Shown here: positions 31,261 through 61,400 of the stretch, in pieces
Layout of the letters: each line of letters begins with the position of its first letter
Numbering within the stretch: the first letter of the stretch is position 1
From: Eledone cirrhosa
Taxonomy: Eukaryota
DNA: 64,000 nt
Direction of reading: 5' to 3'
Assembly (NCBI GenBank): GCA_964016885.1
Contig: OZ024746.1
Span: 35,526,001-35,590,000, forward strand
Translations under genes and position numbers: made by a program
The notes under the pieces: generated by a model
Databases searched by the model: none
Told to the model about the DNA's origin: nothing
What the model saw: only the letters and a program-made list of their open reading frames with translations

Positions 31261-31414
31261 TTTAGTTTCTGAATTTGTTTAGCAAGATTCTTTATCTGAA
31301 AACGTGTGTTGAAACCAATATTGTTATACTTTGGGAGGGTCATGTTGCCAATAAGAAACACACGCACATAGTGCGTGTGTTTCTTATTGGCAACCCTCCC
31401 AAAGTATAACAATA
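31261..31414. mobile_element. Small fold-back element with tail (family D)
   Basis: Hairpin 31319-31414 (3-nt loop ATA, 5-nt bulge in the left arm), tail on the left, TA-flanked. Confidence 0.75.
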
Positions 31415-31449
31415 CATATATATACATATATATATATACATATATATAC

Positions 31450-31488
<39 letters not shown>

Positions 31489-31498
31489 CATATATAAT

Positions 31499-31536
<38 letters not shown>

Positions 31537-31586
31537 ACAATATATACGATATTAATAAATGGAAAGTATATTTATAAGACCATATT

Positions 31587-31651
31587 TATTTCATTATACA
31601 TATTTCGGGGATACCAAATTAAATTATGGTATGCCTTCATCAGACAAAATA
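31587..31651 (-). ncRNA. Minimal type I hammerhead (mirror copy)
   Basis: Reverse complement TATTTTGT-CTGATGA-AGGCATACCA...TGGTATCCCC-GAAATATGTATA-ATGAAATA. Confidence 0.7.
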
Positions 31652-31799
31652 CAATATATAACAGTTTTACAAATAAGCTTTGACGTACCCTTTTAAAATG
31701 CGACCATTATTTTAAGAGGCCATCTGGATGGCCTCCAAAAATAATGGTCGCATTTTAAAAGGGTACGTCAAAGCTTATTTGTAAAACTGTTATATATTG

Positions 31800-31864
31800 T
31801 ATTTTGTCTGATGAAGGCATAACATAATTTAATTTGGTATCCCTGAAATATGTATAATGAAATA
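31800..31864 (+). ncRNA. Minimal type I hammerhead
   Basis: 8-bp stem I with two G-U pairs, CTGATGA, stem II, GAAA-TATGTA-TA, predicted AUA triplet. Confidence 0.7.
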
Positions 31865-32206
31865 AATATGGTTCTATAAATATAGTTTCCATTTATTAAT
31901 ATCGTATATCTACTCCAAATACTTGTCGAGTGCTTTATATCAGTTATAACAATATTTACTTTTGCATATATAACATATAGAACTTTTGCATATATAACAA
32001 TATAACAATATATATATATATATATATATGGGATGTAATGTGCAGTTACTGTTTGTTTCAACCGAGTAAGCACTTGATACGTAGTTCCCAGTCCTTTTAT
32101 TACACACATATACCCTTATATATATATATATGTACTTGTGTGTACGTGTGTGCATGTGTGTGTGCGTGTGTGTCTGTGTGTACGTAAGTTTGTGTGTGTG
32201 TGTGTT

Positions 32207-54843: not shown

Positions 54844-54956
<113 letters not shown>

Positions 54957-54962
54957 CATATT

Positions 54963-55027
54963 TATTTCATTATACATATTTCAAGGACACCAAGTTAAAT
55001 TATGGTGTGCTTTCATCAGATATAATA
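54963..55027 (-). ncRNA. Minimal type I hammerhead at the PLE 3' end
   Basis: CTGATGA-AAGCACACCA...TGGTGTCCTT-GAAATATGTATA; covaries with the 31587 copy. Confidence 0.7.
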
Positions 55028-57290
55028 TAATATCGAGCAGTTTTATGAATAAATATTGAGATAACCTTAAAGAATGCAACTATTACTGTTGGAAGCTCCC
55101 GGATAGTGGAGTTATAACTTTAATTATATTATTAGGTAAGTTAGTATTGGATATTTTTAAATAAGCCGTTGGGTTACGGAGAAAGAGAAAGAGAAAGAAA
55201 GAGCAGAACAACAGAGAGAAAAAAGATAGAGAGAGAGGAGACAGAAGAAAGGAGAGAGAACGAAAACTCTAAGTCATATCTTGTTGAGTTATCTTAACAT
55301 TTGAGATGACGTATAAATAAATAAAATTAGAAATGTTAATAATCATGAATGGAATATACATATATAATATGAGAAATTTTACCATTGTTTAAATATGATT
55401 AGATGTTTAGTTAATCAGTTAAATATTGAGATCAATACATTAAAAATTGGGATCTATATATTAAGAATTCTATATATTATTATTAAGACTATATTGTGAA
55501 AGATCTATATATTATATAACACGTATACACACGCAAAAATACATACATATAAATATATATACACACACGTATAAAACTATATATACATATCTAACTACGT
55601 ATATAATATATACATACAAAATATAAAGGATTCTTTAATTTAAGATATAGGAGTCTTATAAAATCAGAGAAAGTTATTTCAATGTAGTATCAAAGCAGCG
55701 TGAAGGAAAATTACGTTATTTAGTTATATCAATGTTACAATTGTTGAGATATTAAAGGACATTTTATGTTATACACACTTTATTTTATTACATAAAACAA
55801 ATTTGTTTTATATAAGTTTTATAAGATTACCTCTTATGTATTTATGAACTGTTATTATATGTTTATTTGTCACGAATCTTGGGATAATCCCTATAAATAA
55901 GTGCAATCGAATTGTATGGATATACACGCACATATACATACACAATTCCTACATATACATACATATATAGGTAGATACGCATCACGTATATATATGCATA
56001 CAGAAATACATACACGCATAAAACATATGTACATGTATATCAATACACACATACGCATATATATACACACATAGAGAGAGAGATGTATATATAAATACAG
56101 TACATAGTATAATTGAAGTACATAAAATACAAAATAATTATATTACGATTTGGAAATATAATTATAAGCAATATAACATTAAAAACAATATAACTTTAAA
56201 ATTATTATAGAATATTTCAAGTTATAATTTCAAAATAATAATATCTTTAATAGATTTAGTATAGAAATTATCTACGTATATTTAACTTAATTTTATATCC
56301 ATAAGAGAAATAAACAGAAACTTTCAAAAGATAAACCTTCGAAAATAGGATAAACTATCAAACAATAAAAAAAAAAAAAAAAAAAGATAAAAAATATTTT
56401 CCCCCTTTAAGAGCTTTCAGTATATTTCTCTAGAATAGTTTATTATATTTATTTACATTTAGGAAGAAAAGTTTTTTTTACTTGAGTGTATAAGCAGTTA
56501 AAAAATAAAGGAATCTAATGATTTATCGACAGGTTCAATATATTAATAGAATTAATTAATTATATATTACATTTTAAATTTATATTTAAACGTTGAGTTT
56601 AATTTATGTCTACAGCAACTGAATAAATTGTTCCTTAGGTTCAGGAAACTTTTGGTCTTTAATATAAAGAATATTTCCTCTATACAAAGATCACAATTTC
56701 CTGAAGAGGAGTTAAAAGGAGTAGCATTTGAAATAATATTCCAAATCAACGAATATTCAACGTTCTTTAGTTTGAGGTCCCATAATAAGCTAGATAGAGA
56801 AGTTGAAAATTTTTTGTTTGGATCTGGAAAATAATGTTTATGATTATTGAAGCGGGATTTAAACTCTGTGGAAGTGGATCCCACATAATTAAATGAATTT
56901 AAATTAGTTTTTACATTACAATTATATACTATATTTTTAGCTAAGCAATTGTTATTTAACGGACAGTTAGATCTATTTCTACAGTTACATTTATCAAATT
57001 GGATATTGCTTGGGTTATTAGTGGTGTTTTGGTTAGGTTTTAAATTTCTATTATTAATTCTATTAATATTTTGCGCTAAATTTTTGGTGGAAGAATAAGT
57101 TAATTTTATAGTATGTCTATTAAAAATTGAGTAATATCTATGTGTTCTAGGGAAGCATTTGTCAAAGGCTTTAAAACATAGTTTAGCAATAGGGGTTTTA
57201 ATATTTAATGAGAAAGGAGGGGCGAACCATAATATGTTCCTAGTTCTATTTCTTTTTCCGCTTTCGGAATTATTGTATTGTTTTCTATTA

Positions 57291-58278
57291 TCTATATATA
57301 TAAAACTGTGGTTGTCTGTCTGTCTATCGATTTTTGGCACACATCTCCTCTTAGAATCTCTCACGGAATTGCACCGAAATTGCTATACTTGTACATTGAT
57401 CCCTAGCGAAGACATCGGAAAAAAAATATTTCAAATTGACCCACCCTATGTGACGAAATCGAATATAATGTGTCGATTTTTGAGCGTAAGTTATCAGTTA
57501 TTTCCCTTTGTTCTGTTTACATTGAGCGTCTTACGTAAAAAATTACGCTGGCTTTCTCAGCGTTTAAAATGACATTAACACAATACACGAACAGTTGTCG
57601 TCGAGCCAGCAAAATATTGACCTGCAAAATTCATCAGTTCGAACAATAAGCTTCCGTTTTGCTTCATTTCCATTTAAAAGCATTTTAAAACAATATTTTT
57701 ACTTGAAAACAAGTCTATTTAAAGACTACGTAAAACAAGCAAATATTTCGTCGTTAGGCGTGCAGACAGACAGTCGTGCAGACAGACAGTCGTGCAGAGA
57801 GGTGATATACGCGTGCAGACAGTCAGTCGTGCAGAGAGGTGATATAGGCGTGCAGACAGACAGTCGTGCAGAGAGGTGATATAGGCGTGCAGACAGACAG
57901 TCGTGCAGAGAGGTGATATAGGCGTGCAGACAGATAGTCGTGCAGAGAGGTGATATAGGCGTGCAGACAGACATAACTGATAATTTGGTTACGCTAATGT
58001 TTTTCTCTGCGTTGCAGTGTTTACATTTTCGATCTTTGTTAATAAATAACCAGTGCAGTTTCTATCCCCAGCATCCTCTTTTGTTATAACATTTGGGTTA
58101 TCGTTATGTTTTCTTAACTTCATAAGGCATATTGTTGGTTGAGGGAATATTAATCAAAAACACCACATGCAAGTCTGCACAGTAGACACTACAGTTTTTA
58201 AGCCAAGAAAGAAACTTAACATTGTAACTTTAACACAGCTACTGAGCGACCCCGAGCAACGCCGGGCTTTACTGCTAG
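57291..58278 (+). mobile_element. Non-autonomous Helitron (988 bp) inserted in the PLE ORF
   Basis: 5'-TC start, 3'-CTAG end, subterminal hairpin CCCGAGCAACGCCGGG, inserted between A and T with no TSD; removal restores the reading frame NNY|NRKQY. Confidence 0.85.
57757..57972. repeat. ~37-bp minisatellite inside the Helitron
   Basis: Unit AGGCGTGCAGACAGACAGTCGTGCAGAGAGGTGATAT, about 5-6 copies. Confidence 0.9.
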
Positions 58279-59854
58279 TAGTTGTTAAAATTGTTAAAAT
58301 AGTTAAAATTGTTACGATTAGTGTTAGTTGTTATATTATTATTTTTATCAATGTATTTAATTTTATTTCTATACCCAGCTCTACCTAACGCTTCGTTGTA
58401 ATAATGTGCTTTTTCATCAAATATATTCTTATTAGCTGACATTCTCGAAATTCGTTCCTGTACAGAGTTCACTATAGTATTTTTAACGGATCTGGGGTGA
58501 TTAGAGTTAAAATTGACGTAGTTTAAGTTCTCATTTAGTTTGTGAAATGGATAATGAAGACATCTGTTAAGATTTAGTGTTACATCTAGAAAGTTAACTA
58601 TTTTATGGTTATTCTCTATTTCTACTTTTAGATTAAGGTAATTAAAAAATTGTATAATTTGTTTTCTTTTTCTATTTAGATCACAGCTATTATTTTCTAT
58701 AAGTAGAAGCATGTCGTCAAGATCTAAACCTCCGGTTATCTCAGGTATTTTCCTATGTAGAGAATTATTTATAAAGAGGCCCACAAGATCCGTTACCTGA
58801 GCGGAATCGGGTGATCCCATAGTTATATCGAAGTTATTATTTCTATCTGCCCTAGTCCAAAGTTGGTTATTATATTCTATTAATGTTTTCCGTGCCGATA
58901 ATATAATGTGCATTTCATTGCTAGTTAGGTCTGTATGTTTAAATGCGTAAGTTAGTGCTTTATTCAGTAGATTAGGAGTGATAGAGGAGTAATAGTTAGC
59001 AATATCCAACTGAATAAACTTATTATTATAGTTATATTTAATTTCCTTAAACCAATCGATAACTTCACTAGTTACTTTCCATAATTTTAAATAAGATAAA
59101 TTCTTAATTTGTGGTATTATTCTGTCTAGAATATTTTTGCTAAGTCTGCCCAGGTCCGATTTAGATGGTGCAATTAATCTGACTGGTAAATCAGTTTCGA
59201 AGTTCCTTTTATGATCCTTCATATTAATCTTAGGTTTCCTTGGCATGAAGGGTTGTGTCCTATTTTCAATGCCTAGTTCATGCATTATATAAGAGGCATC
59301 TGTATTCAATTTTTCAAGGTCGTCTTTATTTGCTACTTTGTATTTCTTCCTTAATTCCTTTAATATAAGATCGTTATAAATGTCCTTTTGTATTCCGTAA
59401 AGATTATTGGTTTTGTCAGATTTGACTAGAATTTTCTCCGTTTTCTCCAAGTTTTCAATATTATTTTTAATATTTCTTAACTACTCGTGGCCTTTGAAGT
59501 TGTTTTTGAATTTGATGCTTTGGATGATAGATATGATATCATTTTCAAAATCCATTAGTAGTTTGTTGGGGGGTGAAATTTTTTTAGATTTGAAGATTTT
59601 ATCCAGATTGGAGACATTTTCATTTAGATTAGATTTATCGAAGTGGAAAGCACGCCACCTTATTCTTCTTATAAAAGAGTCTGATTTTTCTATTAATTGT
59701 TTAATAAAATCTTTATTCCTAGGTAAAGGTATGTCCTTTAGAGAAGAAGATATCTTAAAGAATTCCATTTTACAGTTATAATATAAAGCGCTCGACAATA
59801 CAGGAGCAGAATATATATACATATATATTATATATATATATTATATATATATAT

Positions 59855-61400
<1,546 letters not shown>

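Follow-up and report, generated by a model that had tools for sequence, protein, structure and literature searches.

What kind of element leaves a long, almost perfect inverted repeat with a ribozyme-like motif in each arm? The question is raised by palindrome E, which lies at positions 31542-31909 (+ strand) of a 64,000-nucleotide stretch of the Eledone cirrhosa genome (assembly GCA_964016885.1, contig OZ024746.1, positions 35,526,001 to 35,590,000, forward strand; below, the window, with positions counted from its first letter). Our analysis indicates that palindrome E is very probably a head-to-head pair of 5′-truncated 3′ ends of a Penelope-like element (PLE) of the Hydra clade, placed in a (TA)n microsatellite, and that the pair likely arose in a single insertion event in which both ends of the cut target primed reverse transcription.

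Palindrome E and its parent element

The palindrome consists of two 183-nt arms, 96% complementary to each other and separated by a 2-nt spacer. The arms differ at seven positions. When compared with the commonest genomic copy, the left arm shows five differences and the right arm two, one of which (C to A at position 96 of the arm) affects stem II. The palindrome and its flanks comprise the following features:

31415..31541: (TA)n-rich tract bordering the left arm on its outer (3′) side; the short or 'A' type of end, without a tail (from reading of the sequence and a repeat-coverage profile from ~31415)
31542..31724, - strand (sense): left arm, comprising the final 183 nt of the 3′ untranslated region (UTR) of the PLE, 5′-truncated at the centre of the palindrome
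31727..31909, + strand (sense): right arm, the corresponding 183-nt segment of the 3′ UTR
31910..32030, + strand: 'tail' of the right arm, lacking on the left; an 89-nt segment in rearranged form (to ~32000), followed by (TA)n; the long or 'B' type of end

A preliminary description of this DNA had aligned an arm with positions 54951-55100 and proposed that both arms represent the 3′ end of a relative of the reverse transcriptase (RT)/endonuclease element at 54951-59840 (- strand). Both proposals were confirmed. The right arm matches the reverse complement of 54951-55105 with 80.5% identity over 154 nt (E 5.7e-37; in round figures, ~80% and 6e-37), and the left arm matches the same region with 81.1% identity over 143 nt (E 8.4e-35); both alignments are gapless, and both E values refer to the 64-kb search space. 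The resident element is composed of the following parts:

54951..56566, - strand: 3′ UTR of the resident Hydra-type PLE, ending in (TA)n 20 nt past the predicted cleavage site
56567..57291, - strand: linker (CNCRNRSNC, i.e. CxCX5C) and GIY-YIG nuclease part of the PLE open reading frame (ORF), recognized by translation; the homologue at another locus, L031, is 87% identical
57292..58278, no strand assigned: 987-nt insertion with internal repeats, which splits the RT from the nuclease in the resident copy and is absent from L031 (BLAST coordinates)
58275..59840, - strand: RT part of the PLE ORF (RWR, DKT and RT motifs), interrupted by a single in-frame stop codon (59478-59480)

The resident PLE (54951 to ~59815, - strand) is 4.9 kb long, or ~3.9 kb without the 987-nt insertion, and is flanked by (TA)n on both sides, the start of its 5′ UTR adjoining (TA)n at ~59815. 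The insertion contains internal tandem repeats, and an ORF within it (57726-58061) translates to a repeated peptide. At L031 the coding region is contiguous: an RT-nuclease ORF (93+419 aa) is followed by a 1.1-kb 3′ UTR with the hammerhead motif and, at its end, the arm sequence, while an inverted 5′-truncated copy is attached on the 5′ side of the ORF. The protein encoded at this locus is 87-90% identical to the products of the window ORFs 58275-59840 and 56567-57382.

A search with the RT ORF yielded 76 homologues, the best of them from Argonauta hians, with PF26215 as their precomputed Pfam annotation. Language-model neighbours fell into clusters with HTH_animal, GIY-YIG (21-27% of members) and RVT_1 (13-23%) domains. 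An alignment of 21 sequences revealed the conserved motifs RMRWK(AF), ADKT, GLYRDD, CNCRx5C, (I/V)(I/V)Y...Y(I/V)G, CxLCxxE and LNxR...CRH. The window ORFs carry SDKTNN and IRWRAF, and the strings CNCRNRSNC (linker), CDLCIEE and NN..CCRH were read from the translations of the window, L031 and the homologues taken together. No RVT_1 or GIY-YIG domain was detected in a Pfam scan of nine window ORFs or in a relaxed scan of the same kind, and a sequence profile built from the 21-protein alignment had no match in the PDB at E values up to 10.

The AlphaFold model of the L031 protein has a mean predicted local distance difference test (pLDDT) score of 74, with 81-93 in the nuclease part. Residues 295-397 of this model superimpose on the GIY-YIG domain of I-TevI (Z 8.7, root-mean-square deviation 2.2, 88 of 92 residues), which was the top match among 48,161 chains in a structural search; T4 EndoII (Z 7.1) and the GIY-YIG domain of UvrC (Z 6.0) were further matches. 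Residues 1-151 resemble an RT palm, with retroviral and group II intron RTs at Z 6.3-7.7 (HIV RT, 7.7 and 7.4). In a Foldseek comparison with the PDB the top matches were all reverse transcriptases, although weak (E 0.03-0.2), and the GIY-YIG fold surfaced only in the wide structural search. The parent protein is thus an RT followed by a C-terminal GIY-YIG nuclease, i.e. it has the architecture of canonical PLEs. No nuclease motif was found upstream of the RT in the window ORF or its homologues.

This arrangement does not agree with the 'Naiad-like' label of the preliminary description, whose structural reasoning is otherwise sound. According to the clade definitions of Craig et al. 2021 (PMC8557442), Hydra elements are distinguished by a C-terminal nuclease, RWK, DKT in place of DKG, a CxCX5C linker, CxxC/CxH around the conserved E/N, lack of CCHH, insertion into (TA)n, canonical hammerheads and a length of <3 kb. 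The same definitions give Naiads an N-terminal nuclease, a CxC domain, an insertion-in-fingers domain, DKA and no canonical hammerhead, and mention only old Naiad remnants in cephalopods. The present element has (i) a single ORF with RT and C-terminal GIY-YIG, (ii) an RWK-type motif, DKT and CxCX5C, (iii) CxxC before the conserved E and CxH after the conserved N, (iv) (TA)n as target, and (v) a type I hammerhead ~50-150 nt from the 3′ end with a helix III of 3-4 bp and a loop of 1-3 nt. Reading by eye, without a profile, disclosed no CCHH between the GIY and YIG motifs. The motifs, the (TA)n target and the 3′ hammerhead thus fit the Hydra clade and not Naiad, an assignment made from motifs and domain order. 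Naiads, including Naiad_Ovul and Naiad_Obim, resemble the element in being cephalopod PLEs that insert in (TA)n, and some of them carry a hammerhead core or half core (same source, as far as its Naiad descriptions go), but none of the Naiad marks listed above fits.

Its size speaks against this placement: at ~3.9 kb without the insertion the element exceeds the <3 kb given for Hydra in the clade description of PMC8557442, and its 3′ UTR of 1.1-1.6 kb and very high copy number also set it apart. In the metadata table of that paper the sole Octopus family of the clade is Hydra-1_Obim of Octopus bimaculoides, a 2.5-kb family annotated 'no pLTR'. By eye, SDKTNNLY, LWFAP.FSLN and YVGS are common to both proteins. 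In contrast, the full-length copies in E. cirrhosa show clear pseudo-long terminal repeats (pseudo-LTRs), and the hammerhead sequence is another one, with a helix II of 9-10 bp containing a conserved C.C mismatch and an all-A/U helix III.

Genomic copies and the proposed origin of the inverted pairs

Copies were sought in the 3.0-Gb genome that holds the window, first-look matches being treated as candidates. The 183-nt arm gave 2092 candidates, of which 40 were scored and all proved 95-100% identical; 1313 candidates were obtained for the family of the 54951 element and 924 for its 5′ region. Thirty arm loci were selected for covering the whole 183-nt query, and shorter arms are thereby hidden from this set. 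Most copies at these loci have an inverted partner in (-,+) order, with the 3′ ends pointing outward as in the window. The partner arms start anywhere at arm positions 2 to 109 and reach position 183 or nearly so, and arms longer than the query occur at some loci. The fixed outer ends and variable inner ends therefore argue for 5′-truncated retrotransposed copies and not for a transposon with terminal inverted repeats (TIRs). Both outer ends of the pairs run into (TA)n, and nearly all 3′ ends at 63 loci adjoin (TA)n.

An inverted 5′-truncated copy beside a PLE copy is a described hallmark of these elements, as are a tail at one end and a preference for (TA)n (see the account of insertion structures in PMC8557442), and hammerheads 100-700 bp apart on opposite strands were reported for PLEs in 2014 (Cervera and de la Pena, PMC4209133). 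The link between fold-backs and a PLE drawn in the preliminary description is thus not new.

Two types of 3′ end were distinguished among the copies: ...CGTATAT followed by (TA)n, or an end 89 nt farther, at ...TTTTGCATAT, followed by (TA)n. In full-length copies the 89-nt stretch is preceded by the hammerhead-bearing 3′ UTR and followed by the 5′ UTR and start codon, and is therefore part of the pseudo-LTR junction. In family 1, exactly one end was tailed in 15 of 16 distinct pairs, the remaining pair being tail-less (11 pairs were counted by script and 4 with one arm read by eye, after three duplicate loci had been dropped). In family 2 the same was true of 9 of 11 pairs, the other two lacking a tail. 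Pooled, 24/27 pairs have one tail and none has two.

These features agree with the insertion architecture known for PLEs (Evgen'ev and Arkhipova as cited in PMC8557442; Frangieh et al. 2024, PMC11167929): the copy is inverted head to head with its 3′ end outward and strongly truncated on its 5′ side, only one end of the unit is tailed, and the tail occupies the interval from one alternative 3′ end to the other. Three differences were noted. The tail is 89 nt long, compared with a published length of 30-40 bp; both start sites end in UAUAU, matching (TA)n, whereas the start site of the anole PLE is not homologous to its target (PMC11167929); and both copies are often cut to ~190 nt, which gives them the look of a bare palindrome. 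In vitro, the protein of the anole PLE cuts both DNA strands and extends each of them, and the tail of that element spans the interval between two internal RT start sites (PMC11167929).

The insertion may be pictured as follows. The two 3′ ends of the copies would correspond to two RT start sites on the RNA, by analogy with the anole element in vitro (PMC11167929). After breakage of the self-complementary (TA)n, each of its two 3′ ends could then prime at one of these sites, on a UAUAU run of the RNA, and microhomology would serve to join the inner ends of the resulting cDNAs; many junctions are placed at the near-palindrome ATCCAGAT. A more specific version, which is possible but which we advance only tentatively, explains the one-tail rule by a concerted event: a dimeric RT-nuclease would engage two adjacent start sites of one RNA, one for each (TA)n strand, with the RNA bridging the break. 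If this is true, a self-complementary target makes inverted twins the default product, and the genomic copies provide in vivo evidence for the two-strand priming that separates PLEs from long interspersed nuclear elements (LINEs). A point against the insertion model is that arm length is no guide to the position of the tail: the longer of the two arms is tailed in L002, L011 and L013, but in L005, L010, L014, L018, L020 and L024 it is the shorter arm that bears the tail.

About 17 of the 30 main arms start within ~15 nt of ACTATCCAGATGG, a region that corresponds to window positions around 31716-31735; of 14 upstream pseudo-LTRs in full-length copies, five have their start close to it. The ACTATCCAGATGG region could be the 5′ end of the element RNA, or a preferred junction at the near-palindrome ATCCAGAT.

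Cervera and de la Pena (2020) reportedly described animal non-LTR retrozymes as short non-coding type I hammerhead units, thought to be mobilised by PLEs. It is conceivable, if rather unlikely, that the arms represent such a non-autonomous hammerhead element (an animal 'retrozyme' or a pseudo-LTR copy resembling a short interspersed nuclear element) with a defined RNA 5′ end, and not a randomly truncated PLE. The clustered starts near ACTATCCAGATGG and the very large number of short copies would suit this explanation, and the units are, like retrozymes, short, non-coding and equipped with a type I hammerhead; animal retrozymes have moreover been argued to derive from PLE pseudo-LTRs (according to the summary of bioRxiv 10.64898/2026.07.22.740005). 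However, retrozymes are direct tandem repeats that yield circular RNAs, whereas the hammerhead unit formed no regular direct tandem array among 134 matches in 60 sources (267 kb), most matches belonging to inverted pairs. The one same-strand neighbour pair, at positions 2415 and 2726 of L024, is made of two different subfamilies. Furthermore, coding copies have an almost identical sequence in their 3′ UTR, arms extending beyond the unit by various lengths occur, and selection of the 30 loci for full 183-nt coverage hid the shorter arms.

A snap-back origin, in which a single cDNA from the outer, tailed site folds at an internal inverted repeat, copies itself outward and stops at the first UAUAU run, which then joins the other (TA)n end, appears unlikely. 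It would account for one long and one short end and for the equal arms in the window, and the natural sequence at the centre, ATCCAGAT, is near-palindromic, with many junctions lying within ~15 nt of it. Many pairs are nevertheless unequal, with partner starts at arm positions 31, 36, 41, 61, 83, 90 or 109, and in 6 of 9 unequal pairs the tail is on the shorter arm, the opposite of what a simple snap-back predicts; in addition, the PLE protein extends both strands in vitro (PMC11167929). Private variants shared by paired arms, as a sign of a common template, amounted to 1 shared versus 32 private in 16 pairs, the copies being too close to the commonest sequence for this comparison to be informative. 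Priming by both ends of the cut (TA)n is retained as the preferred origin of palindrome E.

The hammerhead motif and its comparative support

The preliminary description had also claimed a hammerhead motif on both strands of the palindrome. A covariance model, introduced below, found it in each arm as well as in the resident PLE, its presence on both strands being due to the fact that the arms are inverted copies:

31579..31657, - strand: left-arm hammerhead, 100.8 bits; predicted cleavage after A 31595 (31595/31594)
31794..31872, + strand: right-arm hammerhead, 97.6 bits; CUGAUGA at 31808-31814, GAAA at 31845-31848; predicted cleavage after A31856
54955..55033, - strand: resident-PLE hammerhead, 96.5 bits; predicted cleavage after A 54971

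On the sense strand the motif reads, in order, helix I 5′ strand UAUUUUGU, CUGAUGA, helix II AGG-C-AUACCA...UGGUAU-C-CCU, GAA, helix III AUA-UG-UAU, the cleavage nucleotide A and helix I 3′ strand AUGAAAUA. It is a type I hammerhead with a helix II of 9-10 bp, a 3-bp helix III closed by a 2-nt loop, an AUA triplet and an 8-bp A/U-rich helix I. CUGAUGA, GAAA and AUA are present in all three window copies, which also share, as stated in the preliminary description, an identical CTGATGA and the 27-mer GAAATATGTATAATGAAATAAATATGG. The quoted change in stem II is likewise present, GCATACCA/TGGTATCC in the left arm (- strand) being replaced by GCACACCA/TGGTGTCC in the 54951 copy (U-A to C-G). The layout is that of the Hydra-clade hammerheads in File S2 of PMC8557442, for which that file gives a helix III of 3-4 bp, a loop of 1-3 nt and A, U or C at the cleavage site.

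Two tests of covariation were carried out. In the first, 64 sources were scanned with a pattern, which returned 29 distinct sequences; 25 of these were aligned with MAFFT and scored against a structure drawn up by hand. In total, 95.4% of the cells were paired, 13 of 20 pairs had changed on both sides, none of 500 shuffles scored as high, and control structures slid along the alignment reached 38-52%. The pattern demanded the core and helix III, and this test is uninformative on the conservation of either. In the second test a covariance model was built and searched over 267 kb and then 170 kb, which produced 87 matches (46 distinct), including families whose flanks no longer align. Here 95.8% of the cells were paired and both-side changes rose to 15 of 20 pairs (9/9 in helix II, 5/8 in helix I and 1/3 in helix III), with 0/500 shuffles as high and slid controls at 37-58%. 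The stem II covariation noted earlier thus survives the addition of copies.

The change in helix III, from A-U to G-C in 10 sequences, converts AUA/UAU into AUG/CAU and gives AUGCGCAU, with both pairing and palindromy kept. The core is intact in 39 of the 46 distinct matches, and the seven exceptions are truncated at a junction or point-mutated. Between the two families of the window the motif differs at 7 of 79 positions, five of them paired (with pairing maintained), one in loop 2 and one outside helix I. Between these families, conservation along the 3′ UTR is also highest in the windows over the motif, where 41 and 49 of 60 columns are identical, as compared with 15-38 elsewhere. Taken together, the covariation strongly supports the hammerhead as a real, conserved structure, self-cleavage being only predicted from the sequence.

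A number of points weigh against a standard, active ribozyme:

(i) Both tests lean towards the structure, as the sequences of the first were required to carry the core and the alignment of the second was fitted to the model.
(ii) The Rfam hammerhead families gave no match in the whole window at gathering scores, and none at E values up to 10 in both window regions and four loci with diverged copies, where only sub-threshold microRNA or (TA)n artefacts appeared.
(iii) Thermodynamic support is weak (z +0.97 to -2.08), and for the right arm the structure of minimum energy is something other than a hammerhead.
(iv) In the present register, the first pair of helix II is A-U (A.C in the left arm) and not the G10.1-C11.1 typical of the PLE hammerheads presented in PMC4209133.
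(v) In both arms a private substitution disrupts one of the pairs of helix II.
(vi) Helix II contains a C.C mismatch in most families.
(vii) Minimal PLE hammerheads cleave poorly in vitro, in the assays described in PMC4209133, and cleavage of the anole PLE RNA is protein-assisted and dispensable for insertion in vitro (PMC11167929).

Rfam is blind to the motif and the folding of single sequences is unconvincing; the case for the hammerhead rests on the comparison of copies.

As for the fourth point, columns 25/72, which form the first pair of helix II, read AU in 28 sequences, GC in 6, GU in 3 and other combinations in 9; in PLE hammerheads A9 is often followed by an additional nucleotide (PMC4209133), in which case helix II would have to be read in a shifted register. 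The substitution in the left arm, U to C just before GAAA, breaks the first stem II pair. The C.C mismatch occupies helix II position 4 (31818/31842 in the right arm; columns 28 and 69), where C occurs in 42/46 and 37/46 distinct sequences from otherwise dissimilar families.

We consider it improbable that the helix II hairpin serves a role other than cleavage, such as protein binding or an RT start signal, next to a hammerhead-like core that is not catalytic. The silence of Rfam, the non-standard first pair, the conserved mismatch and the weak or dispensable cleavage reported for other PLEs (PMC11167929, and the assays of PMC4209133) would be expected on such a view. Nevertheless, CUGANGA, GAAA and UA/A hold exact places around three covarying helices in families with non-aligning flanks, the AUA/UAU to AUG/CAU change in helix III retains both pairing and palindromic character, and canonical hammerheads have been reported at the same position in Hydra-clade PLEs (clade description in PMC8557442).

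The hammerhead reading is also in line with several properties of PLE ribozymes as presented in PMC4209133, namely a type I fold in flanking repeats, a long helix II, a short near-palindromic helix III, many covarying variants per genome, and opposite-strand motif pairs 100-700 bp apart. Apart from the first helix II pair, in the present register A-U here and a conserved G10.1-C11.1 there, the present motif differs from them in its longer (8-bp), almost purely A/U helix I and in escaping detection by Rfam. The helix III string, AUAUGUAU, is near-palindromic, and PLE hammerheads of this kind are thought to act as dimers (discussed in PMC4209133). Where full-length copies give tandem or pseudo-LTR transcripts, two ribozymes may pair through AUAUGUAU and act as a dimer. 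A transcript reading through palindrome E, by contrast, would lock the ribozyme in a 180-bp hairpin and leave it inert: the hairpin of the whole palindrome folds with -266.8 kcal/mol (z -40), compared with -7 to -12 kcal/mol for the ribozyme region alone.

Further hammerhead families, scoring 30-47 bits, were identified at L033:5350-5431, L018:808-889 and 1007-1088, L016:1239-1323, L036:839-923, L037:2536-2620, L056, L058 and L010:647-931. In these, helix III is perfectly palindromic (AUGCGCAU) or reads AUGUUCAU, and helices I and II differ. This indicates the presence of several PLE lineages in the genome.

Significance, annotation and neighbouring repeats

All parts of this arrangement have been described before: PLE repeats with hammerheads, some of them paired on opposite strands, in 2014, the (TA)n-inserting Hydra clade with an Octopus family in 2021, and inverted 5′-truncated copies and one-sided tails in 2021 and 2024. 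The finding is therefore real but ordinary, the layout being already known for PLEs. What it adds is modest: (i) extra, very abundant and young Hydra-type families with clear pseudo-LTRs, (ii) a covarying hammerhead variant with a conserved C.C mismatch that is missed by the curated Rfam models, and (iii) clean one-tail counts (24/27 pairs), consistent with the two-strand priming demonstrated in vitro in 2024 (PMC11167929).

The result is also of value for annotation, as it accounts for a class of palindromes flanked by (TA)n, which might otherwise be annotated as microRNA hairpins or as fold-back transposons. Palindrome E exemplifies fold-backs liable to be miscalled as microRNA precursors: the Rfam models MIR869, mir-617 and MIR1878 match it with E values down to 2e-23, far under their gathering scores. 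Despite the long, perfect-looking hairpin (-266.8 kcal/mol, z -40) and these sub-threshold matches, it can hardly be (i) a microRNA-type hairpin gene, all matches being far below gathering scores (e.g. 97 versus 330 bits), (ii) a fold-back DNA transposon or miniature inverted-repeat transposable element, as its arms are a retroelement 3′ UTR with fixed outer and variable inner ends, the reverse of what is expected of TIRs, or (iii) an assembly artefact from a chimeric read, given the seven differences between the arms and the recurrence of the architecture at dozens of loci.

Other repeats were observed in the window. A long palindrome at 25339-25678/25695-26034 has 340-nt arms, 91% complementary, whose outer ends meet (TA)n-like sequence; the hammerhead covariance model had no match in it, and CUGANGA was not seen by eye in its right arm. 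It may be a head-to-head pair of another (TA)n-targeting element, perhaps the first link between a fold-back and a PLE mentioned in the preliminary description. Immediately left of the (TA)n tract of palindrome E, at 31300-31420, lies a small palindrome with ~50-nt arms around ...gtgcgtgtgtttcttattggcaa.... The start of its sequence, AAACGTGTGTTGAAACC.ATATTGTTATACTTTGGGAG, recurs in L017 (~1790-1860), where it comes after an unrelated copy and its (TA)n tail, and the small palindrome is for this reason regarded as another (TA)n-neighbouring repeat. Just past the (TA)n at the 5′ end of the resident PLE, ORFs at 59787-60486 (+ strand), including ...ISLIDVAAKTF..., look by eye like a fragment of a non-LTR (LINE-type) RT.

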